Origin: an uncultured Muribaculaceae bacterium
Lineage (GTDB): Bacteria > Bacillota_I > Bacilli_A > RF39 > UBA660
NCBI GenBank assembly: GCA_964542235.1
Contig: CAZITT010000001.1
Location: 1-46,775 of the forward strand
Reading direction: 5' to 3'
Length of the DNA stretch: 46,775 bases
A model generated the notes under the pieces. That model was not told the origin of the DNA and made no database searches. It was given only the letters and a program-made list of their open reading frames with translations. The position numbers and the translations under genes were made by a program. This document shows, piece after piece, positions 694-21,518 of this stretch (position 1 is the stretch's first letter; each line of letters opens with the position of its first letter).

Positions 694-3267
694 ATGAAAT
701 CCAAAATAATTAATTTTTTAAAAATATATAAATTATATATTATTTGCCTTATAATAACAACATTTTTAGTTTCCTTAATATATATAATTAAAGGAGTTAC
801 TCCTTTTGGTAAAAATTCTTTATTAATTATTGATTTTTATCATCAATACGGCCCTTTATTTGGTGAATTATATGATAGAATAATTAATAAGTTAAACGTT
901 TTATATTCTTTTAATTTATCACTAGGCTTACCTTTTTTTAGAAATTTTTTAAATTGCTTATCTAGTCCATTTAGTATAATTATTTTTTTGTTTAATAAAA
1001 CTCAGCTGATAACTTCTCTTTCTTTAATAATCGGTTTAAAAATAATATTTTCTTGTGCTACTATGACTTATTATTTGTCAAAAAAAATTAATACTAAAAA
1101 TATTTATTTGGTATTATTTGGACTATTATATGCTTTCTCTTCTTATTTTATTGCTTATTACTGGAATATTATGTATCTTGATGGATTAGTGTTTTTTCCT
1201 CTTATAATTTTAGGAATAGAAAGATTAATTGATGAAAATAATTATATGTTATATATAGTTAGTCTGCTAACAATGATTGTTGCTAATTATTACATAGCTT
1301 ATATGATATCTATATTTTCTTGTTTATATTTTTTAGCTTATTATGCTTTAAAAACTTTATCTTTTAATGTTAAATATTTTCTAAAATACTTGGGTAAATT
1401 TATTATGTATTCTTTTATAGCAGCTGGAATAGCAGGATTATTTTTAATACCTTTAATCTATAGTTTTCATTCAATAAGTGCTACTGGTAGCAGTTGGCCT
1501 ACATCTCAATATTATTTATTTAGTTTGAAAGAATTTATAATTGGCCTTTTTTCTAATGTTAAATATACTATTTTTGCTAGTGGTATTACTAATGCTCCTA
1601 ATATTGGTTGTGGTGTTTTAATTTTATATTTATCTATTTTATTTTTTGCTAATCCTAAAATAAAATTAAAAGAAAAAATAATATATTTATCTATTTTAGC
1701 AATATTAACATTATCTTTTGCTATCGCTCAAGTAGATTATGTTTGGCATGGATTTCATGTTCCTAATGATGTTCCTTATCGCTACTCTTTTATATATTCA
1801 TTTATCCTAATCGTATTAGCTACTATTTCTTTATTTAAAATAAAATATGTAAAATATATATATATATTAGGAAATTATATAGTAATTAGTGTGATAGCAA
1901 TTATAATATATCTAACTAAAAATATTAATTTTTCGGACAATACTTTAATTATTAATTTAGTATTATTATCACTTTATTTTCTTTTTATAACAATTTATGT
2001 TTATTATCCTAAACTAAAAAAAATAATATTTATATTATTTTTGATAACAGTTAGTGGTGAAATTTTTATTAATATTAATAAAAACTGGACATATTTATAT
2101 GAAAAAAATCAATTCTACGATCAATATGATGTAATTACTAAAACTCTTAATAAAATAAAGGAAAATAACAAATCAATGTATCGTATAGAACAAGTATATT
2201 TTAATTCTTATAATGATCCATCGTGGTACAATTATTATGGTCAAATGGGCTTTAGCTCAATGATATATGAAAATCTTGCTTATTTAGAGTATAGCTTAGG
2301 AATGCCCTCTAATGAAATAAACAGTTTTAATTATAAACAAACAACTCCTATTCATGATTTAATGTTTAATATTAAATACTTTATTGGCGATAATTTTGAT
2401 AATTTAAATTATGAATTATATTTCGAAAATGAATATCTAACTGTTAATAAAAATAATTATAATGTTGGTTTAATGTTTGGTGTTAATAAAGATATATTAA
2501 ATTGGAACTATGACTTAGAAAATCCTTTCTTAATTCAAAACGATTTTATAGATAAAGCAACTGGTATCAAAGATATTTTATATAAATTAAAAGTTGCCAA
2601 TGAAATAGTAGCATTTCAATCTGATGATGAAATTATTATTAAATATGAAATTGATAATATTAATAAAAATATGTATATTTATAACAATGATTATAATGTA
2701 AACTACTTCATTATAGATAATGTCTTATATCAAAAGTATGATGATGAAGACATCACTATTATAGAAAAAAATTTAGATATAGAAATAAAAGAAATTAAAG
2801 ATTATGAAGATAAATATGTAATTAGTTCTATTCCTAAAGAAAGAACTACCATATATGTATCATATAATAATTATGAAAAAAACTCTCTTTTAGTTTATTC
2901 TCTTGATAATAATAAATTAAAAGAAGCTTATAATATCTTAAATAGTAATGCTTTTAAAATAGCTGACTTTAAAGAAAATCATATTAAAGGAAATATAAAT
3001 ATTGATAAAGAAATGGTTTTATATACTTCCATTCCTTATGATCAAGGATGGGAAGTATATATTGATGGCAAAAAAGTTAATACATATGCTATTGGTAATG
3101 CTCTTTTGGGATTTAATATCTCAAAAGGAAACCATCAAGTAGAATTAAAATACTATCCTAAAGGTTTAAATTTAGGGATAGCTATTTCAATTATATCTAC
3201 ATTAACATTAACTGTTTATTATGTAATTAATAGGAAAAAATACAATAAAGAAAGAATCTTGAATTAA
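694..3267 (+). CDS. yfhO: YfhO-family polytopic membrane glycosyltransferase (GT-C like)
   Basis: 857 aa. The N-terminus (GVTPFGKNSLLIIDFYHQYGPLFGEL) is typical of YfhO. More than 10 predicted TM segments are followed by a large extracytoplasmic domain and a final C-terminal TM. Confidence 0.85.
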   Translation: MKSKIINFLKIYKLYIICLIITTFLVSLIYIIKGVTPFGKNSLLIIDFYHQYGPLFGELYDRIINKLNVLYSFNLSLGLPFFRNFLNCLSSPFSIIIFLFNKTQLITSLSLIIGLKIIFSCATMTYYLSKKINTKNIYLVLFGLLYAFSSYFIAYYWNIMYLDGLVFFPLIILGIERLIDENNYMLYIVSLLTMIVANYYIAYMISIFSCLYFLAYYALKTLSFNVKYFLKYLGKFIMYSFIAAGIAGLFLIPLIYSFHSISATGSSWPTSQYYLFSLKEFIIGLFSNVKYTIFASGITNAPNIGCGVLILYLSILFFANPKIKLKEKIIYLSILAILTLSFAIAQVDYVWHGFHVPNDVPYRYSFIYSFILIVLATISLFKIKYVKYIYILGNYIVISVIAIIIYLTKNINFSDNTLIINLVLLSLYFLFITIYVYYPKLKKIIFILFLITVSGEIFININKNWTYLYEKNQFYDQYDVITKTLNKIKENNKSMYRIEQVYFNSYNDPSWYNYYGQMGFSSMIYENLAYLEYSLGMPSNEINSFNYKQTTPIHDLMFNIKYFIGDNFDNLNYELYFENEYLTVNKNNYNVGLMFGVNKDILNWNYDLENPFLIQNDFIDKATGIKDILYKLKVANEIVAFQSDDEIIIKYEIDNINKNMYIYNNDYNVNYFIIDNVLYQKYDDEDITIIEKNLDIEIKEIKDYEDKYVISSIPKERTTIYVSYNNYEKNSLLVYSLDNNKLKEAYNILNSNAFKIADFKENHIKGNINIDKEMVLYTSIPYDQGWEVYIDGKKVNTYAIGNALLGFNISKGNHQVELKYYPKGLNLGIAISIISTLTLTVYYVINRKKYNKERILN

Positions 3268-5330: not shown

Positions 5331-5831
5331 TTACTTTATACTTTCTAAGTATCTATTTAAACTCTTTCTGTTTTTAAATATAAGTACTTTCTCGCTTTTC
5401 TCTTTCTTTAATAAATCTAAGTATAGAAGTCTTTTAGATTTATTAAACTTTGCAACGAATTTTAAAAATGAAGGATTTATTTTTTCTTTACATCCAGGTA
5501 TTCCTACCACTTCCTTATTTAAATTCATAATCATTCTTTTTAATACTCCTCTAAATTGGGCAAATAATGAATAATCTAAAAATATTATTGTATCAGATCT
5601 TTTAAATTGTTTTTCTAAAGATCTTGTGAAATTTCCATCAATTATCCACTCATCTTCCTTTATATACTTCAATAGAATTTCATATCGTTCAGATATATCT
5701 CTCTTTTTCCAGTTTTCAAGGTATTTTATACCATCAATATGATACACAGGTAAGCTTAATATTTCGCCTAATTTAATTGCAAGTGTTGTTTTACCAGTTC
5801 CTCCACCACCAATAATTGAAATTCTTTTCAT
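5331..5831 (-). CDS. P-loop NTPase, adenylate-kinase-like / DNA topology modulation (FlaR-like) protein
   Basis: Walker A motif IIGGGGTGKTT near the N-terminus, then LPVYHIDG and WIIDGNF, typical of the FlaR/AAA33-like family. I prefer the ATG at 5831 (GGAG upstream) over the GTG at 5840. Confidence 0.75.
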   Translation of the reverse strand: MKRISIIGGGGTGKTTLAIKLGEILSLPVYHIDGIKYLENWKKRDISERYEILLKYIKEDEWIIDGNFTRSLEKQFKRSDTIIFLDYSLFAQFRGVLKRMIMNLNKEVVGIPGCKEKINPSFLKFVAKFNKSKRLLYLDLLKKEKSEKVLIFKNRKSLNRYLESIK

Positions 5832-5919
5832 AGTATTCACTCCGTTTTCTTACCTAAAATTATATCATTATTTCAAAAAAAGAGTTCCCATTATTTAGAA
5901 ATCTCTTCTGTCTCAATTT

Positions 5920-5993
5920 TGGAGGGGCTAACCAGATTTGAACTGGTGCTCAAGGTTTTGCAGACCCATGCCTTACCGCTTGGCTATAGCCCC
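5920..5993 (-). tRNA. tRNA-Cys (GCA), CCA encoded
   Basis: Reverse complement reads GGGGCTATAGCCAAGCGGTAAGGCATGGGTCTGCAAAACCTTGAGCACCAGTTCAAATCTGGTTAGCCCCTCCA. Acceptor stem is GGGGCTA/TAGCCCC, the anticodon loop is CTGCAAA, and the T loop is TTCAAAT. Confidence 0.9.
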
Positions 5994-6126: not shown

Positions 6127-6164
6127 ACTATTATATAATATGCAATGAATAAAAAGGAGGATTT

Positions 6165-8342
6165 ATGAGAAAAATAATAAAATTTTTTATGATAATTTCT
6201 TTACTGTTATCTTTTTTAATTAATCCTCTTGTAATAAATGCAGCAAGTTCTACAATTGGTACAGCAACAGGAATTGTTAGCGTTAAAGATGGTCCTGGTG
6301 ATAATTATAATACAGTAGCTACTTTATCTAGAGGAAGAAGTTTTACTTTAGTGAGCAATGAAAAATATACTAGCGCTAGTGGTTGTGCTGCTAATTGGTA
6401 TAAAATTTATTATAATGGTATTGAAAGATATATTTGTAGTTCTTATGTTAATTTATCTAATTCTACTATTAATTATTTCACTACAAACTTATGGGAAGCT
6501 AGAAGTATTTCCAGTTCTTTAAATGTTAGAGAAAAAGCAAATAGTTCAAGTAAATTCATTGAATCAATTGGATTTGGTACTCAATTAACGATTTTAGAAG
6601 AAGCAGCAAAGGGTAATGGCTGTGATGATAAATGGTTTAAAATATCATATTATAACAATAAAACAGGTTATATATGTTCTACTTTTGTTGCAAAATATCA
6701 AGATGTTACTACTAATAATGAGGAATATAATCAAGTTTTAGAAGCAGCTGGATTTCCTAAATCCTATTGGCCATATCTTTCATATCTACACAGTAAACAT
6801 CCAAACTGGACATTTGTTGCTATACCTACCAATTTGCATTTTAAAGATGTAATTGATGGTGAAGAAGGAAATAATTATATCCAAACTAGCCTTGATGCAT
6901 ATAGAACATCATCTACTCCAGTTGAAGGTTCATCATGGTATCGAGCAACTAATAGTGTTATTGCTTTTTATCTTGATCCTAGAAACTTTTTATTTGAAAA
7001 TTCAATATTTATGTTTGAAAATTTAGGATATGATGCCGAAAATCATACTAAAGAAGTTGTTAAATCTGTATTTGGAAGTGGTTCTTTAGCAGGTGATGTT
7101 TATGTTGATGCATTTTTAAGTGCTGGTGCTAAATATAAAATAAGTCCTATTCATCTTGCTAGTCGTGTTAAACAAGAAGTAGGTATTAATGGTAATCAAG
7201 CTACTAGTGGGAGTAATTTTATTTGGAACGGATCCACCTATTCTGGATTTTATAATTTTTTTAATATCGGAGCTTATGGAACTAACCCATTAACAAGAGG
7301 TTTAGCTTATGCAGCCGGATTACTTGGAAATACTGGAAATGAACTGCCATGGAATACAATTGAAAAATCAATTAATGGTGGAGCTTCTTTTCTTGCTAAT
7401 GGCTATACTTCTCAAGGTCAATATACATTATACTTACAAAAATTTAATGTCGCTCCTAATGCAACATATTCCAGATATACTCATCAATATATGACTAATG
7501 TTAATGCTCCTACTGCTGAAGGGATATCAACTTACAAATCATATAGTGACCAAAATTTATTAGATGTTGGATTTGTCTTTTCAATTCCAGTATATAAATC
7601 TATGCCTGAAGATGCTACTACTTTACCATCTATTGGTAATACTAATAATGATTTAGTAGATATAAAAATAGATGGATTATCTTTAAAGAACTTTGATAAA
7701 GATGTAATCAGTTATGATTATGAAGTATCAGAGGATTTAACTAAAGTTAATTTATCCGCTACACCATCAACAAGTTTAAGCACTGTTCAACTAGATAATG
7801 AAGTAGTTTTAACAACCACAACTACTTCTACTAATATTACAGTAGTTTCTGAATCAGGGCTTTCTAAAACTTATACAATTAATATAACAAAAGTGCCTAA
7901 TTCAGAATTAACTATTGAAAAACAATTATCTTATTTAGGCTTAAAAGTTATTGATAGCAATTTAACAAGTATTAGTGCTTTAACAACATCTAATAATTTA
8001 AGTAATCAAATATTGAGCAAAATGCCTACCGCAACTGTTAATATTACTTTTAATGGCGATAAATTAAGTCCTACTGATAATTTAACAACTGGAAGTATTA
8101 TTACTATTACTAATAATGGCGAATCAATTAAAACTTATAATATAGTTATTAAGGGTGATACAAGTGGTGACGGCAAAATTTCCATTCTTGATTTATTGCA
8201 AACTCAAAAGCATATATTAAAAACTACATTATTAACTGGAACAAATTCTGTTGCAGGGGATGCAAATTATGATAATAAAATAACTATTCTTGATCTATTA
8301 TTAATTCAAAAACATATATTAGGCTTTACTAAAATAAAATAA
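6165..8342 (+). CDS. secreted peptidoglycan hydrolase: two SH3b-like domains, a GH73-type N-acetylglucosaminidase, cadherin-like beta-sandwich domain(s) and a C-terminal dockerin
   Basis: Signal peptide ends INAASS. Two SH3-like repeats (VKDGPGDNYNTVATLSRGRSFTL; LNVREKANSSSKFIESIGFGTQLTIL). Glucosaminidase motif SPIHLASRVKQEVG. Cadherin-like module LVDIKIDGLSLKNFDKDVISYDYEV...KTYTINITK. The last 62 aa hold two dockerin Ca-binding repeats, GDTSGDGKISILDLLQTQKHIL and GDANYDNKITILDLLLIQKHIL (DNA 8154-8339). Confidence 0.8.
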   Translation: MRKIIKFFMIISLLLSFLINPLVINAASSTIGTATGIVSVKDGPGDNYNTVATLSRGRSFTLVSNEKYTSASGCAANWYKIYYNGIERYICSSYVNLSNSTINYFTTNLWEARSISSSLNVREKANSSSKFIESIGFGTQLTILEEAAKGNGCDDKWFKISYYNNKTGYICSTFVAKYQDVTTNNEEYNQVLEAAGFPKSYWPYLSYLHSKHPNWTFVAIPTNLHFKDVIDGEEGNNYIQTSLDAYRTSSTPVEGSSWYRATNSVIAFYLDPRNFLFENSIFMFENLGYDAENHTKEVVKSVFGSGSLAGDVYVDAFLSAGAKYKISPIHLASRVKQEVGINGNQATSGSNFIWNGSTYSGFYNFFNIGAYGTNPLTRGLAYAAGLLGNTGNELPWNTIEKSINGGASFLANGYTSQGQYTLYLQKFNVAPNATYSRYTHQYMTNVNAPTAEGISTYKSYSDQNLLDVGFVFSIPVYKSMPEDATTLPSIGNTNNDLVDIKIDGLSLKNFDKDVISYDYEVSEDLTKVNLSATPSTSLSTVQLDNEVVLTTTTTSTNITVVSESGLSKTYTINITKVPNSELTIEKQLSYLGLKVIDSNLTSISALTTSNNLSNQILSKMPTATVNITFNGDKLSPTDNLTTGSIITITNNGESIKTYNIVIKGDTSGDGKISILDLLQTQKHILKTTLLTGTNSVAGDANYDNKITILDLLLIQKHILGFTKIK

Positions 8343-8352
8343 AGAGGTACTT

Positions 8353-9717
8353 ATGAAAAAAATATATTACAAGTTATTTATATATAGTTTATTAATTTTT
8401 TTACTTGGTATTCCAACCATTGTTGCTAGTGCTGCTACTATTAAAATGACAACTTCTTCATCAACATCAACGATTGTCGTAGGAAAAACATTTACTGTTA
8501 AAGTAGTAGTATCTTCAAATGTTCCAATGGGAGCTTGGGGTTATACTGTAAACTATAATACAAAATTATTTAAATTAATTAGTGGTAAATCATCAGTTGC
8601 TGATGTTGCAAATAGCGGTAATGTTAAAAGTGTAACTTATTCTTATTCATATAAGGCAATCGCATCAGGAACTGGTTCAATTGGCGTAAAATCATATGAA
8701 GCTTACATTTGGGAAAATAATCAAAAAGCAACTGTTAGTCCATTAAGCAAATCAATAAAAGTTATTACCCAATCTCAGCTTGAATCATCTTATAGTTCTA
8801 ATAATTATTTATCATCATTATCAGTTTCCGGCTATAGCCTATCTCCAGCTTTTAATAAAGATGTAACTAGCTATAAAGTAACGTTAAATCCTAATATTGA
8901 AAAGATTACTATTAATGCTACTAAAGCTGATAAAACTGCTTCCCTATCAGGAACAGGAACAAAAGCTGTTAGTGAAGGTGAAAATAAAATATCTGTTGTA
9001 GTAACATCCCAAAAAGGAACAAAAAGAACGTATACTATTATTGCAACTGTTATTGATAAAAATCCTATTAAAACAACTATCAACAACGTTGAATATACAA
9101 TAATTAAAAGAAGTAGTTTATTAAAAGCTCCATCTATTGCCTATCAAGCAAAAACTATAAATATTAATGGTCAAAACATTCCAGCTTTTTATAGTGAAAT
9201 TACTGATTATACTTTAGTTGGTCTTAAGGATAGTGAAGGGAACATTTTTCTTGGTATATATGATGAAGTTAATAATAAATATACACCTTATCAAGAAATT
9301 GAATTTGAAGATGTTACCTTTTACGCACTACCCTTTCCAGAAGAAATAAAAGATTACATCAAAACAAATATTACAATTAATGGAGTTACTATTATTGGTT
9401 ATAAATATGATAAAGATTCAAAATATGCTTTATTATATGGAATAAACGTTAATACAGGTAAAAAAAGTATTTATATGTATGATAGTGAAGAAAATACAAT
9501 TCAAAGATATAATAATGAAGAAATAATTAATTTATATAATAAAAATAAAGATCAAACTATGATAATTTATTATCTAATTGCTGGTATATTACTAGAGCTT
9601 ATTACTGTTGCAATTTTAGTAATAAGAATTATATTGAAAAATAAAAAAAGAAAGAAAAGTAAAAATGAATTAATTGAAGATAAAAAGAAGAAATCTAAAA
9701 CTAAAAAAAATAACTAA
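8353..9717 (+). CDS. type I membrane-anchored surface protein with an N-terminal cohesin-like domain and a cadherin-like beta-sandwich domain
   Basis: Signal peptide ends VASAAT. Residues ~28-137 (TIVVGKTFTVKVVVSSNVPMGAWGYTVNYNTKLFKLISG) follow the cohesin pattern. Cadherin-like module: YLSSLSVSGYSLSPAFNKDVTSYKVTL...GTKRTYTIIATV. A C-terminal TM (IIYYLIAGILLELITVAILVI) is followed by a Lys-rich tail. Confidence 0.6.
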   Translation: MKKIYYKLFIYSLLIFLLGIPTIVASAATIKMTTSSSTSTIVVGKTFTVKVVVSSNVPMGAWGYTVNYNTKLFKLISGKSSVADVANSGNVKSVTYSYSYKAIASGTGSIGVKSYEAYIWENNQKATVSPLSKSIKVITQSQLESSYSSNNYLSSLSVSGYSLSPAFNKDVTSYKVTLNPNIEKITINATKADKTASLSGTGTKAVSEGENKISVVVTSQKGTKRTYTIIATVIDKNPIKTTINNVEYTIIKRSSLLKAPSIAYQAKTININGQNIPAFYSEITDYTLVGLKDSEGNIFLGIYDEVNNKYTPYQEIEFEDVTFYALPFPEEIKDYIKTNITINGVTIIGYKYDKDSKYALLYGINVNTGKKSIYMYDSEENTIQRYNNEEIINLYNKNKDQTMIIYYLIAGILLELITVAILVIRIILKNKKRKKSKNELIEDKKKKSKTKKNN

Positions 9718-13938: not shown

Positions 13939-16812
13939 ATGAGTAAGTTTAAAAAAATATTTAAAGTAAATTCTAAAAAAGAAAAAGTTAAAAAAGTTAG
14001 AGTAAATAAAGTTAAAAGTGAACAAGCTCACTATGGAGATAGAAACAATTTTAATTTAAAAACAAATAAATGGTTTTATCTTGGTGTGACAATTTATACA
14101 TTGTTATTATTTGGGGTTATTTATTTTATATTTGGATCTACTTTAGCAGTTATTTTATTAATTCCTTATACCTTCTTTTTAGTTCTGGCAATGGTTATGG
14201 ATAGAAAAAAAGAAAGATCATTTATTAGAAAAATAATAAAATCAATTCTTACGGCAACTATTATCTTAGGAATTATTGGCATTATGTTATTTGCTGCTTT
14301 CTTTATGTATATTGCTATTACTGCTCCTAAATTTGATAGCGATAAGTTAAATAATGATGAGAAGACTATAATATATGATAAAAATAATACTATTATAACA
14401 ACCATTGGTTTAGAAAAAAGGGAAAAATTAAATTATAATGAATTATCTGATGTTTTAGTAGATGCCATTATAGCAACTGAAGACTCAAGGTTTTTTCAAC
14501 ATAATGGTCTTGATGCTCCTAGGTTTTTTAAAGCAACCGTTGGTCAATTAACAGGTAATTCTGAAGCTGGTGGAGGATCAACTATTACAATGCAAGTTGT
14601 TAAAAATAATTTTACATCTACTACTCGTTCTGGTATTAGAGGCATCATTAGAAAATTTACAGATATATATTTAGCAATATTTAAAATGGAAGCTGGATAT
14701 ACTAAAGAAGAAATATTTGAATTTTATGTTAATGATCCATTTTTAGGAAGTAAGTCATATGGAGTAGAACAAGCATCTCTTACTTATTTTGGTAAGAGTG
14801 CTAAAAATTTAAATTTAGCTGAAGCTTCTCTTATTGCCGGATTGTTCCAGGCACCTGGTGCTTACGATCCTAATATTAATCCAGAAGCTGCTACTCAAAG
14901 AAGAAAAACGGTTTTAGCATTGATGAGACGTCATGGCTATATTACTAAAGAGGAAGAAGATATTGCTAATTCTATTCCAGTTAAAGATTTGTTAATTCCA
15001 TATAATTCATCAAATAGTCCTTATCAAGGCTATATAGATTTAGTTATAGATGAAATTACTGAAAAAACAGGAATGGATCCATATGTAGTACCAATGCTAA
15101 TATATACTAACATGGATAAAAAGAAACAAGATGGCATTAATGACATAATGAATGGCAAAGGTTATAAATGGAAAGATAAAACTATTCAAGCAGGAATTGC
15201 TGCTGTTGAAGTAAATTCTGGTAAAATAGTTGCAATTGGAGCTGGAAGAAATAGAACTGGGGAGCGTACATTTAGTTATGCAGTTGATATAAAACGTCAA
15301 ATAGGTTCAACGGCTAAACCAATATTTGATTATGGTCCAGGTATTGAATTCAATAATTGGTCAACATATACTCTATTTAAAGACGAACCATATCAATATA
15401 GCAATGGTACTAAAATTAAAAACTGGGATAATAAATATTTAGGAACTTTAACTTTAAGGCAAGCTTTAGCAAAATCAAGAAATATTCCTGCTGTTCAAGC
15501 TTTCCAACAAATTGACAATCAAAAAATAATTGAATTTGTAACTTCGCTTGGTATTACTCCAGAGATAGTAAATGGTTATATTCATGAAGCTCATGCCATT
15601 GGCGGTTTCAATGGTTCAAATCCATTAGAACTTGCTGCTGCTTTTGCAGCATTCTCAAATGGCGGTTACTATTATGAACCATATTCAGTTAATAAAATTG
15701 TACTAAGAAACGAAGCCGAAGAAACTACTACTTTTTCTTCAACTCCTACTAGAGTTATGAGTGAAGAAACGGCTTATATGATTACAAATATTTTATATAA
15801 TGGTGTTAATTCTGGGGATATTGGCATTGCAAGAATTTCAGGAGTTGCTCTTGCGGGTAAAACAGGAACAACTGATTACGATCAAAAAACTAGAGATAAA
15901 TATAAATTATCTACTAGTGCTGTTAATGATGCTTGGATTATTGGATATACACCAACATTATCAGTTGGTTTGTGGTATGGTTATGATACAATAACAAAAG
16001 GTGTTTATAATACTATGAGTCAAGCTTCCTATCAAAGAAAAGTTTTATTTAGTGCTATATCAAAAGTTATGTTCTCAAAAACATCTAGCTGGAAACAACC
16101 TACCGGAGTTGTTAGTTCAAAGATAGAAAAAGGAAGTAATCCAGCTATGCTACCAAGTAGTTATACTCCAAGTGATCAAATTGTTACTGAATTATTTAAA
16201 AAAGGATCCACTCCTACTGAAGTATCTTCAAAATATGTTCCTTTACCAACTCCACAAAATGTTAATGTAACATATTCAAGCGGTACTTCAACAATTACAT
16301 GGGATGATGTAACTCCTCATGAAAATATTAATACTACTGAATATGGTGCCTTTGGTTATGAAGTATACTATAATGGCGCTTACTTAGGGTTTACAACTCT
16401 AACAACTTATACTTACGATACAACCTATCCATATGGTACTTATATGATAAAAGCAGCTTACAATAAAATTAAAACGAATAGAAGTAGCGGTGGAAGTTAT
16501 ACCTTATTAAAAGATGCATCTCTTGTTAATTTAACTGTTCAACTTAACAGTCCAACATCATCAGAGACAATTCCAATTGGTTCAAATTATGTTGAACCTT
16601 CTCCTCCAGTCTTAGTATTTGATAACATGATAGATGTAACGTCTTTATCCACAATAACTAAAAATATATATAATTCATCTAATGCTTTTATTGGAACTTC
16701 AATTAGCAGTCTTAATGCTAAAAATAATGAACCTGGAACATATCGAATAGAATACACTGCGGTATATTCAGGTATTACTAAAACTATTAATAAAACAATA
16801 ATTTTTCAATAA
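13939..16812 (+). CDS. ponA: class A penicillin-binding protein (transglycosylase/transpeptidase) with long N- and C-terminal extensions
   Basis: GT51 motif EDSRFFQHNG. Transpeptidase motifs STAKP, SRN and KTGT. The C-terminal ~250 aa contain an FN3-like module (VNVTYSSGTSTITWDDV...YEVYYNG). Confidence 0.95.
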   Translation: MSKFKKIFKVNSKKEKVKKVRVNKVKSEQAHYGDRNNFNLKTNKWFYLGVTIYTLLLFGVIYFIFGSTLAVILLIPYTFFLVLAMVMDRKKERSFIRKIIKSILTATIILGIIGIMLFAAFFMYIAITAPKFDSDKLNNDEKTIIYDKNNTIITTIGLEKREKLNYNELSDVLVDAIIATEDSRFFQHNGLDAPRFFKATVGQLTGNSEAGGGSTITMQVVKNNFTSTTRSGIRGIIRKFTDIYLAIFKMEAGYTKEEIFEFYVNDPFLGSKSYGVEQASLTYFGKSAKNLNLAEASLIAGLFQAPGAYDPNINPEAATQRRKTVLALMRRHGYITKEEEDIANSIPVKDLLIPYNSSNSPYQGYIDLVIDEITEKTGMDPYVVPMLIYTNMDKKKQDGINDIMNGKGYKWKDKTIQAGIAAVEVNSGKIVAIGAGRNRTGERTFSYAVDIKRQIGSTAKPIFDYGPGIEFNNWSTYTLFKDEPYQYSNGTKIKNWDNKYLGTLTLRQALAKSRNIPAVQAFQQIDNQKIIEFVTSLGITPEIVNGYIHEAHAIGGFNGSNPLELAAAFAAFSNGGYYYEPYSVNKIVLRNEAEETTTFSSTPTRVMSEETAYMITNILYNGVNSGDIGIARISGVALAGKTGTTDYDQKTRDKYKLSTSAVNDAWIIGYTPTLSVGLWYGYDTITKGVYNTMSQASYQRKVLFSAISKVMFSKTSSWKQPTGVVSSKIEKGSNPAMLPSSYTPSDQIVTELFKKGSTPTEVSSKYVPLPTPQNVNVTYSSGTSTITWDDVTPHENINTTEYGAFGYEVYYNGAYLGFTTLTTYTYDTTYPYGTYMIKAAYNKIKTNRSSGGSYTLLKDASLVNLTVQLNSPTSSETIPIGSNYVEPSPPVLVFDNMIDVTSLSTITKNIYNSSNAFIGTSISSLNAKNNEPGTYRIEYTAVYSGITKTINKTIIFQ

Positions 16813-16872: not shown

Positions 16873-18807
16873 ATGGAAAAAAAATTCAGAATTAAACCTA
16901 AAATTTTTATATTTTTATTTACAATTATTTGTATGATAAGTTTTATTTATTTGTCTTATAGTCTTTATTTATTAACAGGGATTGAAACAGTTATTAGGTA
17001 TGCTTGTATTACTATTTTAGGTATAATAAATATAATAATATATATCTTAGCATTAAGATCTTGTAAAAAAAGAAAAGTAATAAAACATATTATGTGGATT
17101 ATCATATTGTTAATATTTACTATTGGCCAAGGATACTTAGGTTACTTTATTCATAGTGCTTATTCATCAGTAAGCAACATGACAAAAAATTCATTAATAT
17201 ATGAAACTAGTGTCGTTGTAATGAAAGGTTCTTCAATTACCGATATCGATGATGTAAAAAATAAAAAGATAGGATATTTAAATGATCCAACATCAATTGA
17301 TAACAATATTCTAGCAGAAGCGATTATTGAAGAAAAAAACTTAGATAAAAATAATCAGGTATTAAAATATGATGAATTAAATACGTTAATAGCTGATTTA
17401 TATAATGATGATTTAGACTTAATATTAATAACTAGCAATTATGTTAATTTATTTGGTGATAGTGATGAAGATAGCAGTGGTAATACTAATCCCTATAAAA
17501 ATATTAAAGATGAAACTAAAATAATATATAACAAACAAAAAAAATACACTAAAGAAGAAATCGAAGATATTGAAGGCAATCCTTTAACCAATAGTACTAC
17601 TACCATCACAGATCCTTTTACTATTTTGGTTATGGGTATCGATTCAACTTCAAGTACTTTAAACAAAAATGCTATTGGTAATGGTGATGCTTTAATTATT
17701 ATAACATTTAATCCTAAAACTTTTAATGCAACAATTCTTTCTATTCCAAGAGATACCTATGTTCCAATAAGCTGTAATAGCAACAGAGAGAAAAAAATAA
17801 ACTCAGCAGCATATGGTGGAATAACTTGTATGATTAATACAATTCAAAACTTTTTAAATATAAAAATCAACCATTATGTTAAGATAAACTTTAAAGGGGT
17901 CGTTAAACTAGTTGAAGCATTAGGAGGAGTAGACATTAATGTTCCCTACTCTTTCTGTGAACAAAATAGCAGCAGACAATGGGGTAAAAATACTATTTAT
18001 GTAAATAAAGGGTTACAACATTTAAATGGTGAACAAGCTTTAGCCTTAGCTAGAAATAGAAAAACAAATACTCGTTGTAGTAAAGAATGGAACCAAGGAA
18101 CAAGAAATGACTATGTTAGAGGCCAAAATCAACAATTAGTAATACAAGCAATAATAAATAAAACTAAAACTATAAACAGTCCTGGTCAAATGTTAAACAT
18201 ATTAGATACTGTTAGTAAAAGTATTGATACAAGTTTTTCTACTGAACAAATACTATCATTTTATACAATTGCTAAAGATATTATAAAAACAAGTGCTGTT
18301 GAATCTAGTAATGTCATCACTTTACAAAGACTTTATTTATCTGGTAGAACTCAATGTATTTATGAAGAAAACATGAATAAAGATACATATCCTTGTCTAT
18401 CTAATGAAATACCAAATAAAAATAGTGTAAAAGCTATCCAAAATGCAATGAATGCCAACCTTGGTGGATCAAACTCATTAATTAAAACATTTGATTTTTC
18501 TGCTAATGAAACATATACTCCAACTATTATTGGGAAAAATGTTAGTGGTGTAACATTGTATACTTTACTTGGATCATTCTTAAATAAGACAAAAGCTCAA
18601 GCAGAAATTATGTGTAACAGCAAAAAAATAACTTGTAGTTTTAAATATGCTACTGTAACAGATGCAAATAAAGTTGGAAAAGTAATAGATCAAAGTTATA
18701 ATCAATATAAAAGAGTTGACCGAATTACTTCAGCTTCTCCTTTAACTTTAACAATTGGTCAAGAAAAAATAACAACAACGACAACAACTGTTTCAACTAC
18801 CGAATAA
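16873..18807 (+). CDS. LytR-CpsA-Psr (LCP) family glycopolymer-to-peptidoglycan phosphotransferase, multi-TM N-terminus plus accessory domains
   Basis: LCP core motifs ILVMGIDS, GDALIIITFNP, LSIPRDTYV, INSAAYGG and ALALARNRK. About 4 N-terminal TM segments and an extra ~130 aa extracellular domain precede the core. The C-terminal tail is Thr-rich. Confidence 0.9.
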   Translation: MEKKFRIKPKIFIFLFTIICMISFIYLSYSLYLLTGIETVIRYACITILGIINIIIYILALRSCKKRKVIKHIMWIIILLIFTIGQGYLGYFIHSAYSSVSNMTKNSLIYETSVVVMKGSSITDIDDVKNKKIGYLNDPTSIDNNILAEAIIEEKNLDKNNQVLKYDELNTLIADLYNDDLDLILITSNYVNLFGDSDEDSSGNTNPYKNIKDETKIIYNKQKKYTKEEIEDIEGNPLTNSTTTITDPFTILVMGIDSTSSTLNKNAIGNGDALIIITFNPKTFNATILSIPRDTYVPISCNSNREKKINSAAYGGITCMINTIQNFLNIKINHYVKINFKGVVKLVEALGGVDINVPYSFCEQNSSRQWGKNTIYVNKGLQHLNGEQALALARNRKTNTRCSKEWNQGTRNDYVRGQNQQLVIQAIINKTKTINSPGQMLNILDTVSKSIDTSFSTEQILSFYTIAKDIIKTSAVESSNVITLQRLYLSGRTQCIYEENMNKDTYPCLSNEIPNKNSVKAIQNAMNANLGGSNSLIKTFDFSANETYTPTIIGKNVSGVTLYTLLGSFLNKTKAQAEIMCNSKKITCSFKYATVTDANKVGKVIDQSYNQYKRVDRITSASPLTLTIGQEKITTTTTTVSTTE

Positions 18808-19550: not shown

Positions 19551-21518
19551 CTATTCCTTTAAATTTTCTTTTTTTATTAGATCATATACAACAATATTAT
19601 TTGATACTTTGAGCAAATTTTGAGCATAATCTCTATAATTACTTATATAATTTTCATCTAATGCTTTATCTATTAATAATTTATATTCGCCTTTACCTTC
19701 ATTATAATATACTTTATCTGTAACAAAGTTTCCATTTGGGAATACAACAATATTATTTTTTACACTAAATATGTCGTTGCCTAAAGCATAATCATTTTTA
19801 AATCCCATAATATTTCCTAATGTAGGCATAACATCATACATACCCATTACTTTTGTTATTTCTTTCTTTTCTTCACCATTTTTAGTCCAAATAATGAAAG
19901 GAACTTTTCTATTTAATTCATACCAATAATAATCAAGATCTACATAATTTGGATCATCACTATTTAAAATATTATTAGTATTTGGATCATAGTTATACAT
20001 ATAATTATACTCATTTTTAGATAATCTTGCATCATGATCGCCATATATTATAACTACTGTATTTTCAAGTAATCCCTCTTTATCTAATAAATATAAAAAT
20101 AAACCAATTTGCATATCTGCATAATGAACAGATTTAATATAATTACCTAATTTTGTACCTTCTAAATAAGGATAAACCTCGCCGTTCTTAGTTAATGTTA
20201 CATCAAAATCGCCATATTTATCAACATCGCCAAATGGAGTATGATTACTTAATGTAATTGATGTTATAAAAAATGGATTTCCTTCTTCACTTATTTGTTT
20301 AATGATTGGGACTGATTGAGTAAAGAAAGATTTATCAGATAAACCAAAACCAATCACATCATCTATTGTAAATGATGATTTATCATACATTTTGTTATAT
20401 CCTAAATTTTTATGCATATTTTTTCTATTCCAAAATGAACCATTATTAGCATGCATACTATAAGATTTATAGCCTTGAAGGCTTAATAATTTAGGAATAG
20501 ATATATACTCTTTATCATAATGATTAATAAATACTGTGCCACTGTTAACTGGCATTAATGAAGTTAAAAAAGTAAATTCAGTATCACTACTTGTCCCTAC
20601 ACTTACTTGAGAATAAAAATTACTAAAATATAATCCTTCTTTTGTTAATTTATTTAATGTTGGCGTTACTGCATTACCATTAAATTTTTTATTGATTACA
20701 AAACCTTGAAGACTCTCAGCATGAATGACAATAACATTTTTGCCTTTATAAATATTTGTATATTTATTTTTTTTGCTATTATCTTCTTTATTGGCAAAAT
20801 AATTTTTAAAATTTAAATAAGCTTGATCAGAGCCAAACATTTCTGATAATTTTGGTTCGATGCTTTTAATAATATCGTTTAATTGATAACAATAAACTCC
20901 AAATCTACTAACTAAATATTCCCTATTCCATTGCGAATAAAATCGTGAATAATCGATTGGTTTTAATAGAGATAAAAATAAAAAGAAAATTATACTGCCC
21001 CAAGAAAAAGCTAATTTAATAGATTCTTTATCATGTCCTGATTTAATTAAATGTTTATTTTTTCGTAGATATAAGTTTAAGCCAAACATAAAAAAGGGAT
21101 AAATAAGCAGTATTAGATATTTAAAGCTTAAAATATTTTGAGCAGTATTAACTCCCCCTGTATCATAATTAGTCATAATAAATGATATAAAGGTTATTGA
21201 TACAAATGAATCATAAAAACCAAAATATAAAGCATTAGCCAATGAAAAAAAACTAGAGATAACAGTTAATATCAATAAATAAGTATTTCTTCTTGATTCT
21301 TTAATAAATAAAGAAAGCCCTCCAATTAATAAACTAACACTAAAATCGGCTAGGATGGGTGTAATTCCAAAATAATTTTGAATTGTTAAAGCTCTTACTA
21401 AAAATCCATTAAATGTTGCTCCAATAACATAGCATGATAAAAAAATGTTATTTTTAAAAATATTCTTTGATCTAATGAAAAAATTTTTAATTTTTTGTTT
21501 CACTTTTACCACTTCCAT
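19551..21518 (-). CDS. ltaS: lipoteichoic acid synthase family protein (LtaS-type sulfatase-fold phosphoglycerol transferase)
   Basis: Five N-terminal TM segments followed by an extracellular sulfatase-like domain (NVIVIHAESLQGF, VGTSSDTEFTFLTS, GDHDARL). Confidence 0.9.
   Translation of the reverse strand: MEVVKVKQKIKNFFIRSKNIFKNNIFLSCYVIGATFNGFLVRALTIQNYFGITPILADFSVSLLIGGLSLFIKESRRNTYLLILTVISSFFSLANALYFGFYDSFVSITFISFIMTNYDTGGVNTAQNILSFKYLILLIYPFFMFGLNLYLRKNKHLIKSGHDKESIKLAFSWGSIIFFLFLSLLKPIDYSRFYSQWNREYLVSRFGVYCYQLNDIIKSIEPKLSEMFGSDQAYLNFKNYFANKEDNSKKNKYTNIYKGKNVIVIHAESLQGFVINKKFNGNAVTPTLNKLTKEGLYFSNFYSQVSVGTSSDTEFTFLTSLMPVNSGTVFINHYDKEYISIPKLLSLQGYKSYSMHANNGSFWNRKNMHKNLGYNKMYDKSSFTIDDVIGFGLSDKSFFTQSVPIIKQISEEGNPFFITSITLSNHTPFGDVDKYGDFDVTLTKNGEVYPYLEGTKLGNYIKSVHYADMQIGLFLYLLDKEGLLENTVVIIYGDHDARLSKNEYNYMYNYDPNTNNILNSDDPNYVDLDYYWYELNRKVPFIIWTKNGEEKKEITKVMGMYDVMPTLGNIMGFKNDYALGNDIFSVKNNIVVFPNGNFVTDKVYYNEGKGEYKLLIDKALDENYISNYRDYAQNLLKVSNNIVVYDLIKKENLKE

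Follow-up and report, generated by a model that had tools for sequence, protein, structure and literature searches.

The window analysed here (46,775 nt) encodes a predicted secreted peptidoglycan hydrolase ending in a type I dockerin (P1) and, directly downstream, a membrane protein whose N-terminal domain is predicted to be a cohesin (P2). We propose that P1 and P2 are the two halves of a dedicated cohesin-dockerin tether of the non-cellulosomal kind, by which the genome's sole GH73-type enzyme would be kept at the membrane surface to cut the cell's own wall (probability about 0.7). The domain identities, the single-copy status of the domains, gene order, co-occurrence and co-variation of the pair, and the predicted packing of a homologous pair are described below together with three other readings of the locus.

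P1 and P2 lie on the same strand (Table 1). The coordinates and motifs given for both genes in the original prediction, including the 10-nt gap, were reproduced; the gap contains AGAGG. No terminator-like site was found in the 10-nt gap between the two genes. A same-strand dockerin-GH73 gene directly upstream of a cohesin-anchor gene was present at all 20 relatives' loci, and the same order was found at 79 of the 80 loci taken from species genomes, with one exception on a 2.2-kb contig cut upstream; overall, the order was kept in 99 of 100 related loci. The genome (0.77 Mb, 84% complete) contained one dockerin, one cohesin-like domain and one GH73-like domain, all at this locus, and a single copy of the P2 membrane-proximal domain. 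Because the dockerin and the cohesin-like domain are each single in the genome and the gene order is so widely kept, the adjacency of P1 and P2 is not due to chance.

Table 1. Features of the P1-P2 locus (positions in the window).
Feature	Position	Strand	Remarks
P1 ribosome-binding site AAGGAGG	6150..6164	+	7 nt 5' of ATG; read from sequence
P1 gene	6165..8342	+	725 aa
P1 signal peptide, residues 1-26 (...LVINA/AS)	6165..6242	+	AxA-type cleavage site read from sequence
P1 two SH3b wall-binding domains, residues ~33-100 and 110-178	6261..6698	+	Pfam SH3_3, PDB matches
P1 GH73-type N-acetylglucosaminidase domain (predicted), residues 190-480	6732..7604	+	PDB matches
P1 spacer region, cadherin-like 506-576 and second stretch 590-655	7680..8129	+	sub-threshold Pfam Cadherin-like
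P1 type I dockerin, two calcium-loop repeats	8142..8339	+	Pfam Dockerin_1
Intergenic spacer, 10 nt	8343..8352	+	holds P2 ribosome-binding site AGAGG; read from sequence
P2 gene	8353..9717	+	454 aa; type I membrane protein
P2 signal peptide, residues 1-27 (...IVASA/AT)	8353..8433	+	hydrophobic segment 4-33
P2 compact cohesin domain (predicted), residues 28-140	8434..8772	+	family profile, PDB, fold model
P2 cadherin-like beta-sandwich stalk module, residues 153-229	8809..9039	+	Pfam PF12733
P2 conserved membrane-proximal domain, residues 236-395	9058..9537	+	family conservation
P2 TM helix ~403-428 and Lys-rich tail 429-454 (14 K/R)	9559..9714	+	hydropathy scan

The original prediction had named many dockerins in the genome as an observation that would make this adjacency incidental; the survey gave one dockerin and one cohesin. 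No other dockerin, cohesin or scaffoldin was found in the genome, which is 84% complete, so that a second dockerin or cohesin could be absent from the assembly. Relatives carried 0-4 dockerins. The lone dockerin in this 84% complete genome argues against a multi-dockerin, cellulosome-type system. The GH73 domain and the P2 membrane-proximal domain were present in the identical 19 of 41 genomes; almost every genome was single-copy for both, and the two double GH73 entries each represent one gene in two pieces.

The sole hydrophobic segment of P1 in a hydropathy scan was at residues 1-31. Pfam SH3_3 matched two stretches of P1 (E 4.6e-19) and 15 of 20 P1 family members, and this region matched the SH3b NMR structures 2kt8, 2kyb and 2krs in the PDB. 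Pfam Glucosaminidase (PF01832) did not match P1 at E up to 1, nor the 20 family members (E up to 0.001) or any other part of the genome. The GH73 assignment was made because P1 matches solved structures: the single sequence matched Atl glucosaminidase (6fxo, 6e-16), AtlE (4pi7, 8e-9) and SagB (6u0o, 1.2e-7), and the family profile matched SagB (6u0o, 4.3e-24), 6fxp (8.6e-24) and 6fxo (1e-22). The putative catalytic Glu, E338, lies within SPIHLASRVKQEVG at residues 327-340 and aligned with the 'HALLETG' Glu of SagB and Atl; E338, Q441 and Y442 were at least 90% conserved among 20 family members. Judged from sequence, the P1 glucosaminidase is a divergent GH73 branch overlooked by the Pfam core model, and the earlier GH73-type call was upheld by the structural matches and the aligned Glu, with PF01832 silent. 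Between the enzyme and the dockerin, Pfam Cadherin-like scored 23.0 bits, just under its cut-off of 24.2, and matched 9 of 20 family members. Stretch 590-655 gave no profile match and is taken to be a further spacer module. Thus, of the cadherin-like modules claimed for P1, one was detectable at a sub-threshold score; the plural did not hold. P1 family proteins are 508-770 aa long and vary in the number of spacer modules.

The C-terminal region of P1 matched Pfam Dockerin_1 (PF00404) with 39.9 bits against a cut-off of 22.9, which bears out the two dockerin calcium-loop repeats of the original prediction. The match runs over residues 663-719 and takes in all 57 profile positions (1-57); in a six-frame genome search, the same domain scored 44.6 bits. 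A dockerin is expected to comprise a pair of ~22-residue repeats, in which an EF-hand-like calcium loop carrying D/N at positions 1, 3 and 5 and D at 12 leads into a helix. P1 has two such calcium-loop repeats, DTSGDGKISILD and DANYDNKITILD, at residues 664-685 and 698-719 (DNA 8154-8219 and 8256-8321), and the dockerin in a fold model of a homologous locus (L037, see below) has three helices. Of 20 family members, 19-20 keep D1, D5 and D12 of the loop in each repeat. Intact calcium loops are thus conserved in the two repeats, and recognition positions 10-11 are variable. Type I dockerins in the PDB matched the P1 dockerin.

Pfam Cohesin (PF00963) did not match the window's own P2 sequence. 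This result favours a reading in which the two modules are not mutual binders and their adjacency reflects mere co-expression of two envelope proteins: the N-terminal domain of P2 would serve as a spacer of generic Ig-like or jelly-roll type, and the dockerin would be a stabiliser that binds calcium, or would have a different partner, such as a wall polymer or another species' cohesin. Many orphan dockerins of non-cellulolytic organisms likewise have no known partner. However, PF00963 matched 6 of 47 P2 homologues at E < 0.01 and 5 of 20 at E < 0.001, and two homologues 40-47% identical to P2 scored 28.5 bits (P0045) and 29.9 bits (P0092), above the cut-off of 24.1. When the profile of the P2 N-terminal domain was compared with the PDB, the matches were almost exclusively cohesins (21 of the 26 listed), the best being 3l8q (7e-5). 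The AF2 model of the domain was confident (pLDDT 93, pTM 0.83) and had 10 strand segments; with the nine-stranded beta jelly-roll of solved cohesins as the criterion, it has the cohesin fold and is ~25 residues shorter than the Pfam model (~113 aa, versus 139 model positions of canonical cohesins). The top Foldseek matches were cohesins (2jh2, 6kgf, 2w1n, 2xdh, 5lxv and 4dh2; E 2e-6 to 4e-5, TM 0.57-0.71; the first five, TM 0.63-0.71), and cohesins made up most of the best 50 matches listed. Other beta-sandwiches (TRAP-beta, CARDB and complement MG domains) were only ~tenfold worse and had similar TM-scores, a point in favour of the spacer interpretation. Because homologues pass the Pfam threshold, the PDB profile matches are cohesins and the fold model is confident, the N-terminal 113 aa of P2 are, by sequence profile and model, a compact, divergent cohesin. 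The cohesin assignment of the original prediction therefore stood the profile and fold tests at the family level, whereas P2's own sequence falls below Pfam detection.

Over 85 distinct P1-P2 pairs, dockerin distance was best correlated with cohesin distance (Pearson 0.66, Spearman 0.50); with the P1 module that directly precedes the dockerin, the corresponding values were 0.50 and 0.27. When the other modules were controlled for, dockerin and cohesin had a partial correlation of 0.42-0.45, which was reached by 0 of 2000 permutations. The partial correlations of the dockerin with the adjacent module and with GH73 were 0.08 and -0.01, respectively. These findings indicate that dockerin divergence follows the neighbour gene's cohesin better than it follows modules of its own protein. 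Part of this co-variation comes from a shared recombination history, because the dockerin and cohesin coding regions are only ~100 nt apart; the adjacent-module control argues that it is not the whole story. The original prediction had instead taken a shared cadherin-like module as a sign of co-evolution. This argument does not hold: the cadherin-like modules of P1 and P2 showed no pairwise similarity (BLASTP E = 15), and the real co-variation is that of dockerin with cohesin.

At the homologous locus L037, the two genes are in a common frame, and the dockerin and cohesin are 48% and 47% identical, respectively, to those in the window. A read-through model (dockerin, stop, signal peptide, cohesin) gave a pTM of 0.70 and a pLDDT of 87.9, with disorder in the linker only; this is an artificial single chain of a homologue modelled with no negative control, and pTM is its sole read-out. 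The cohesin part, 117 of 216 residues, would alone cap pTM at ~0.54-0.56. Since 0.70 is above this single-domain ceiling, the dockerin is placed confidently against the cohesin in the L037 model. The dedicated two-gene module of the original prediction thus gains from a pair that is conserved, co-occurring and co-varying, with a homologous pair predicted to pack. Together with the single dockerin and single cohesin in the genome and the gene order kept in nearly all loci, the specific co-variation and the L037 model make the reading of non-binding modules very improbable.

The remaining parts of P2 point to a membrane anchor. A27 at the signal peptide cleavage site is nearly invariant across the family. 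PF12733 matched P2 with 33.2 bits against a cut-off of 24.2 and matched all 47 homologues; this match and the hydropathy scan agreed with the cadherin-like module, TM helix and Lys-rich tail described earlier. The membrane-proximal domain had no Pfam, NCBIfam or PDB sequence match; P238, I271, an LVGLK motif at 288-292 and Y376 are conserved in it. No SLH match and no LPXTG-like motif were found in P2, and no sortase was found in the 84% complete genome, which rules out P2 as an SLH- or sortase-anchored scaffoldin.

A passive tether would have no need of the strongly conserved 160-aa domain or of the charged cytoplasmic tail that P2 carries. P2 might instead be a regulator whose cohesin holds P1 inactive or sequestered, or delivers it to a site such as the septum through the membrane-proximal domain and the tail, with activity dependent on release or on partner proteins. 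Known hydrolases are often under membrane-partner control. Staphylococcus aureus SagB is a membrane-anchored GH73 glucosaminidase that works with the membrane protein SpdC (PDB 6u0o), and its NCBIfam name is 'peptidoglycan release complex glucosaminidase'. SagB and P1 share a catalytic domain family (profile E 4.3e-24), and in both cases a glucosaminidase that has a membrane partner may be kept at the membrane surface. However, SagB is anchored by an N-terminal TM helix of its own and has a polytopic partner, whereas the one hydrophobic segment of P1 is a cleavable signal peptide and P2 would be a separate, pluggable, single-pass stalk anchor. The NCBIfam SagB profile matched P1 with 45 bits (E 6.6e-12), far under its cut-off of 425. 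A SagB-SpdC-type complex was therefore rejected, the resemblance being at most a functional analogy. An LCP gene is often linked to the pair, which hints at a coupling with the attachment of wall polymers and also speaks for regulation. Against it, no sequence sign of an inhibitory contact with the catalytic domain was seen, the P2 tail is low-complexity and variable in length, and cohesin-dockerin contacts in known systems are confined to the dockerin. We consider a regulatory role of P2 unlikely.

Gene context bears on the target of the enzyme. The window holds genes for a class A PBP (PBP1A), an LCP ligase, an LtaS-like enzyme and YfhO, and an LCP homologue lies directly beside the pair in ~55 of 100 loci. 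A pair situated amid the cell's own envelope genes argues against a displayed hydrolase aimed outward, which would lyse or graze neighbours' peptidoglycan (scavenging, competition or an epibiotic lifestyle) and leave the own wall unremodelled. The very small genome (relatives have about 0.6-1.6 Mb) suggests dependence on others, stalk and two spacer modules would give the enzyme a long modular reach, and peptidoglycan is a general ligand of SH3b domains, all of which would suit such a role. Across the order, 288 of 401 sampled genomes, from 104 of 145 genera, carried the P2 membrane-proximal domain; the module is not essential, because it is absent from ~28% of the order's genomes, including a 98%-complete genome of 0.8 Mb, and this dispensability also fits outward action. 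However, P1 is the only GH73 of the 84% complete genome, its closest solved relatives are housekeeping staphylococcal autolysins, and no immunity gene is evident. The same module is also indicated in a free-living Ruminococcus with a normal-sized genome by a brief published annotation (PMC4611034). An outward target is, in our judgement, quite improbable.

That annotation concerns Ruminococcus bicirculans, for which a lone dockerin and a lone cohesin 'associated with a GH73 enzyme' were recorded (Wegmann et al. 2014, cited in Ze et al. 2015, PMC4611034). GH73 with a dockerin is also recorded in strains of Ruminococcus albus (Dassa et al. 2014, PMC4081043). The arrangement is therefore already in print for R. 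bicirculans, noted but uncharacterised in the passage concerned (PMC4611034). Common to these cases and ours is the non-cellulolytic or non-cellulosomal setting. These ruminococci belong to Clostridia and have normal-sized genomes, whereas the host here is of a Bacilli-labelled lineage with small genomes of about 0.8-1.3 Mb. The published notes, in the passages cited, are one-line genome annotations that do not describe gene order, anchor type, binding or function.

Better-characterised connectors offer further comparison. In Clostridium thermocellum, dozens of dockerins are encoded in the genome, and a single cohesin on a surface-anchored protein likewise captures a dockerin-bearing enzyme: OlpA and OlpC (PDB 3ul4, 4dh2) directly capture the type I dockerins of enzymes on the cell surface. 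Both 3ul4_A and 4dh2_A were among the cohesin fold matches of P2, and their dockerins were among the P1 sequence matches. OlpA and OlpC have SLH anchors and plant-polysaccharide enzymes, whereas P2 has a C-terminal TM-helix anchor, an autolysin as predicted cargo and an exclusive pairing. The best structural match to the P2 cohesin was 2jh2 (E 2.2e-6, TM 0.65, Foldseek). This structure, 2w1n, 2o4e and 2ozn are non-cellulosomal cohesin/dockerin modules of Clostridium perfringens glycoside hydrolases (GH84 NagJ cohesin). These hydrolases are likewise a case of non-cellulosomal connector use in a gut Firmicute; however, their modules join secreted host-glycan enzymes to each other, whereas the P1-P2 pair would join an own-wall enzyme to a membrane anchor.

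We therefore favour a tether that acts on the cell's own wall. P1 and P2 would both be exported via Sec. P2 would be retained in the membrane by its C-terminal helix, with the Lys-rich tail inside, and would present its one compact cohesin at the end of a stalk consisting of the cadherin-like module and the 160-aa conserved domain. Freed from its signal peptide, P1 would plug its type I dockerin into this cohesin in a calcium-dependent manner, which would place the genome's only GH73 and two SH3b domains within fixed reach of the external face of the membrane. There, P1 may cut the glycan strands of its own cell's peptidoglycan, so as to trim or release strands as the cell grows, to separate daughter cells, or both. 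Such tethering may also control muralytic activity spatially, as the original prediction supposed. If this is true, a gut bacterium with a tiny genome uses a connector known from cellulosomes to keep its own wall hydrolase at the membrane.

P1, a signal peptide-bearing hydrolase, and P2, a membrane protein, are encoded on one strand in different reading frames, separated by 10 nt. No terminator-like site was found between the two genes. The motifs quoted for both proteins in the original prediction were recovered at their assigned positions. Beyond the pair, nth, dnaD and cca lie on the opposite strand. A phage-endolysin origin of the pair was rejected in view of the signal peptides on P1 and P2 and of the flanking tRNA-Cys, nth, dnaD and cca. 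The class A PBP, LCP, LtaS-like and YfhO genes of the window indicate that the organism builds a cell wall; one Amidase_3 is encoded elsewhere in the genome, outside the window. In ~55 of 100 related loci, an LCP homologue directly adjoins the pair, either on the same strand just downstream of P2 or divergent ~150 nt upstream of P1. In the window itself, the LCP gene is 7 kb from the pair. Window ORFs of at least 100 aa use CGG once in 14,696 codons and AGA 243 times, and terminate in TAA (24), TAG (9) or TGA (5). No sign of a frameshift tied to CGG was seen in the P1 gene.

Features of the window around the P1-P2 pair
Feature	Coordinates	Strand	Product size	Remark
YfhO	694-3267			encoded in window
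P-loop ORF	5331-5840	minus	169 aa	motif GGGGTGKTT; no Pfam match at E up to 1e-5
tRNA-Cys (GCA)	5920-5993	minus		in the 325-nt gap directly upstream of P1
P1 gene	6165-8342	plus	725 aa	ORF call; own Shine-Dalgarno AAGGAGG
P2 gene	8353-9717	plus	454 aa	ORF call; own Shine-Dalgarno AGAGG
Class A PBP	13939-16812			encoded in window
LCP (LytR-CpsA-Psr) ligase	16873-18807			adjoins class A PBP gene
LtaS-like sulfatase-family enzyme	19551-21518			encoded in window

Pfam searches of P1 revealed two SH3_3 domains (E 4.6e-19) and a full-length Dockerin_1 domain at residues 663-719 (39.9 bits; cut-off 22.9). A Cadherin-like module fell just below threshold (23.0 bits; cut-off 24.2). Apart from its N-terminal signal peptide, P1 has no hydrophobic segment. 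Because the Pfam Glucosaminidase model gave no match in P1, in 20 relatives or in the genome, the GH73 assignment was taken from sequence matches in the PDB. Residues 190-480 matched the solved GH73 glucosaminidases Atl (6fxo, 6e-16) and AtlE (4pi7, 8e-9) of S. aureus and SagB (6u0o, 1.2e-7), and a 20-member family profile matched SagB at 4.3e-24 and Atl at 1e-22. The catalytic Glu of the solved enzymes aligns with E338 of P1, in SPIHLASRVKQEVG; at least 90% of family members keep E338, Q441 and Y442. The dockerin has two intact calcium loops, DTSGDGKISILD and DANYDNKITILD. In 19-20 of 20 relatives the liganding positions are kept, and positions 10-11, which contribute to specificity in known dockerins, are variable. 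Between the repeats the helices barely differ (ILDLLQTQKHIL and ILDLLLIQKHIL), a symmetry that may, as in other type I dockerins, be tied to a dual binding mode.

The N-terminal domain of P2 (residues 28-140) had been proposed to be a cohesin. Searches with P2 itself did not bear this out: Pfam Cohesin gave no match on its own sequence or in a six-frame search of the genome, and a single-sequence PDB search returned only noise. The proposal was upheld by homologues, domain profile and fold. Full-length homologues of P2 number in the hundreds, and PF00963 was matched by 6 of 47 and 5 of 20 of them in two samples. At E up to 0.001 the representative library gave thousands of hits, many of which are giant multi-cadherin proteins and not orthologues of P2. 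Two homologues examined closely, P0045 and P0092, scored 28.5 and 29.9 bits, above the curated Cohesin cut-off of 24.1. When a profile of the domain was searched against the PDB, cohesins made up 21 of the 26 matches listed, the best being 3l8q (7e-5). An AlphaFold2 model from the same alignment had a pLDDT of 93 and a pTM of 0.83. Its best Foldseek matches were the cohesins of C. perfringens GH84C (2jh2), C. acetobutylicum CohA2 (6kgf), Archaeoglobus (2xdh) and R. flavefaciens ScaC (5lxv), with E values of 2e-6 to 4e-5 and TM-scores of 0.57-0.71. Unrelated beta-sandwiches (TRAP-beta, CARDB and complement MG domains) scored within ~tenfold of these; the fold evidence taken alone is therefore soft, and the sequence-profile evidence decides the assignment. 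From the family members, profiles and model, we conclude that the domain is a compact (~113 aa), divergent cohesin.

The cohesin of P2 follows a signal peptide and precedes a Cadherin-like module (residues 153-229, 33.2 bits), a conserved domain (236-395), a TM helix (~403-428) and a C-terminal tail with 14 K/R in 26 residues. P2 has no LPXTG-like motif, and no sortase was found in the genome (769,544 bp, 84% complete). Signal peptide, C-terminal TM helix, K/R tail and the lack of LPXTG and sortase together mark P2 as a type I membrane protein whose N-terminal domain lies outermost from the membrane. The conserved 160-aa domain is extracellular and membrane-proximal. It is present in single copy and had no sequence match in Pfam, NCBIfam or PDB. 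P2 might in principle be a regulatory rather than a passive anchor; we consider this unlikely.

The genome searched (769,544 bp in 97 contigs, 84% complete) did not contain the many dockerins and scaffoldins that would make the adjacency of P1 and P2 incidental: it encodes exactly one dockerin and no cohesin other than that of P2. A six-frame scan with family-specific HMMs found dockerin, GH73, cohesin and membrane-proximal domain in one copy each, all within P1 and P2, which makes P1 the sole GH73 protein of this 84% complete genome. Another conceivable role for P1, that of a weapon or scavenging enzyme directed at other bacteria, is in our estimate very unlikely.

The same arrangement recurs in relatives. 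At each of 20 related loci, the next gene after a dockerin-bearing GH73 gene, on the same strand, encodes a signal peptide-bearing, cohesin-like protein; this also holds at loci whose cohesin has diverged beyond detection by the profile used. Among 185,579 species genomes scanned, 380 relatives of P2 were found; of the 80 loci listed, 79 had a GH73-dockerin gene immediately upstream, and the exception was a 2.2-kb contig truncated upstream. The GH73 domain and the membrane-proximal domain of P2 occurred in the identical 19 of 41 genomes, nearly always in single copy (two apparent double GH73 entries were one gene in two pieces), and genomes without the pair missed both parts together. No fusion of GH73 directly to a stalk and TM helix was seen in the genomes without the pair. 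Sampling of the order found the membrane-proximal domain in 288 of 401 genomes and 104 of 145 genera. Its absence from ~28% of the sampled genomes, one of them 98% complete, points to a common yet dispensable module. The relatives are MAGs from the guts of humans, goats, sheep, rabbits, reindeer and chickens. They carry the labels Bacilli, Mycoplasmatota or Tenericutes, which would fit the GTDB order RF39, and include 'Clostridium sp. CAG:524' and Candidatus Onthocola.

Some relatives depart from this pattern. In some genera, at loci L028-L033 (genomes G014, G005, G006, G022, G024 and G002), the protein after the dockerin gene has an N-terminal domain beyond the reach of the cohesin profile; the G002 and G022 proteins are far shorter, at 231 and 311 aa, and have no membrane-proximal domain. 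These loci may represent swapped cohesin types or decaying copies. Relatives G013, G014, G015, G020 and G024 encode 2-4 dockerins each, some of them in very large open frames (1000-2500 aa). Thus, the connector has other cargoes in some family members.

For 85 distinct pairs, divergence between loci was compared among six segments: GH73, the module immediately preceding the dockerin, dockerin, cohesin, P2 cadherin-like module and P2 membrane-proximal domain. Dockerin divergence correlated with that of the cohesin at Pearson 0.66 (Spearman 0.50), with that of the adjacent upstream module of its own gene at 0.50 (0.27) and with that of GH73 at 0.49 (0.29). The partial correlation of dockerin with cohesin given the remaining segments was 0.42-0.45, a value reached by 0 of 2000 permutations; it was 0.08 for dockerin with the adjacent module, -0.01 for dockerin with GH73, and 0.21 for cohesin with the P2 cadherin-like module. 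Physical linkage alone predicts that the tie to the adjacent module should at least equal the tie to the cohesin; dockerin and cohesin therefore change together. Such joint change points to co-evolution, or to exchange as a matched unit. Co-evolution had originally been argued from a cadherin-like module common to P1 and P2. That argument was wrong: the two modules do not resemble each other in sequence (BLASTP E = 15).

Complex formation was modelled by single-chain folding. The window's P1 and P2 are in different frames, and no CGGN word was available to bridge them because of the near absence of CGG. At the homologous locus L037, whose dockerin and cohesin are 48% and 47% identical to those of the window, the genes are in frame with one TAA between them. 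Reading this TAA as Gly gave one chain of dockerin, 3 residues, signal peptide and cohesin, which was folded with a block alignment of 15 natural paired rows and 90 unpaired fragments. AlphaFold2 returned a pLDDT of 87.9 and a pTM of 0.70, with poor definition only at residues ~65-100, the linker. As pTM is normalised over all 216 residues, the cohesin part (117 residues) alone could reach at most ~0.54-0.56. The value of 0.70 exceeds this ceiling, indicating that the dockerin was placed confidently against the cohesin. The model, with pTM as its sole read-out, suggests indirectly, through a homologue and an artificial fusion, that the L037 dockerin packs on the cohesin. That the modules of P1 and P2 do not bind at all is the least probable of the alternatives we considered.

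The original interpretation is thus partly supported: a dedicated cognate pair of P1 and P2 is well supported in silico, spatial control of the hydrolase would be a possible consequence, and the cadherin-module argument fails. In the mechanism we propose, both proteins would be exported; P2 would stay anchored and display its cohesin on a stalk, and P1 would dock by its calcium-loaded dockerin. The SH3b domains would engage peptidoglycan and the GH73 domain would cut glycan strands, with its reach set by the P2 stalk and the P1 spacer modules. More broadly, with a probability of roughly 0.2, the cohesin-dockerin connector may be a widespread housekeeping positioner of a glycan-strand-cleaving autolysin in Firmicutes, a modular analogue of the SagB membrane complex of staphylococci that acts on nascent peptidoglycan with LCP ligases, the conserved stalk domain coupling it to the machinery of wall synthesis.

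P1-P2 would resemble membrane-anchored SagB in function but be built from cellulosome-type connectors. It differs from the SagB-SpdC complex in that P1 has no TM helix and its partner P2 is single-pass. It differs from a cellulosomal anchoring scaffoldin in that P2 carries no SLH or sortase signal and the genome lacks the enzyme repertoire. Both likenesses are analogies, not family relationships. A passage in Ze et al. (2015, PMC4611034), citing Wegmann et al. (2014), describes a lone dockerin and a lone cohesin, GH73-associated, in Ruminococcus bicirculans, and one in Dassa et al. (2014, PMC4081043) describes dockerin-bearing GH73 enzymes in R. albus. P1-P2 is therefore a further case of an arrangement already noted in print, in these passages without characterisation. 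Full-text literature searches found no paper testing a cohesin-tethered autolysin. The present case comes from a different class and from strongly reduced genomes, in which the pair is especially clearly exclusive.

Cohesin-dockerin pairs are textbook parts of the cellulosome, and to our knowledge the many copies in non-cellulolytic organisms stand mostly without a function. In P1-P2 the connector is pared down to the simplest possible form, with one dockerin, one cohesin and one cargo. The genome is under strong reduction, and ~72% of the sampled genomes of the order retain the module. The pair makes a clean, widespread candidate for cohesin-dockerin in a housekeeping role. It also lends itself to testing whether the connector has a second task, that of placing a peptidoglycan hydrolase at the membrane. 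As small orthogonal connectors, the compact 113-residue cohesin and the dockerin matched to it may find use in protein engineering as well. How membrane partners control autolysins is under active study in cell-wall biology, and a tether of the pluggable kind would be a new answer. If the housekeeping reading is true, wall remodelling, not cellulose degradation, could be an old, perhaps the original, job of the cohesin-dockerin connector.
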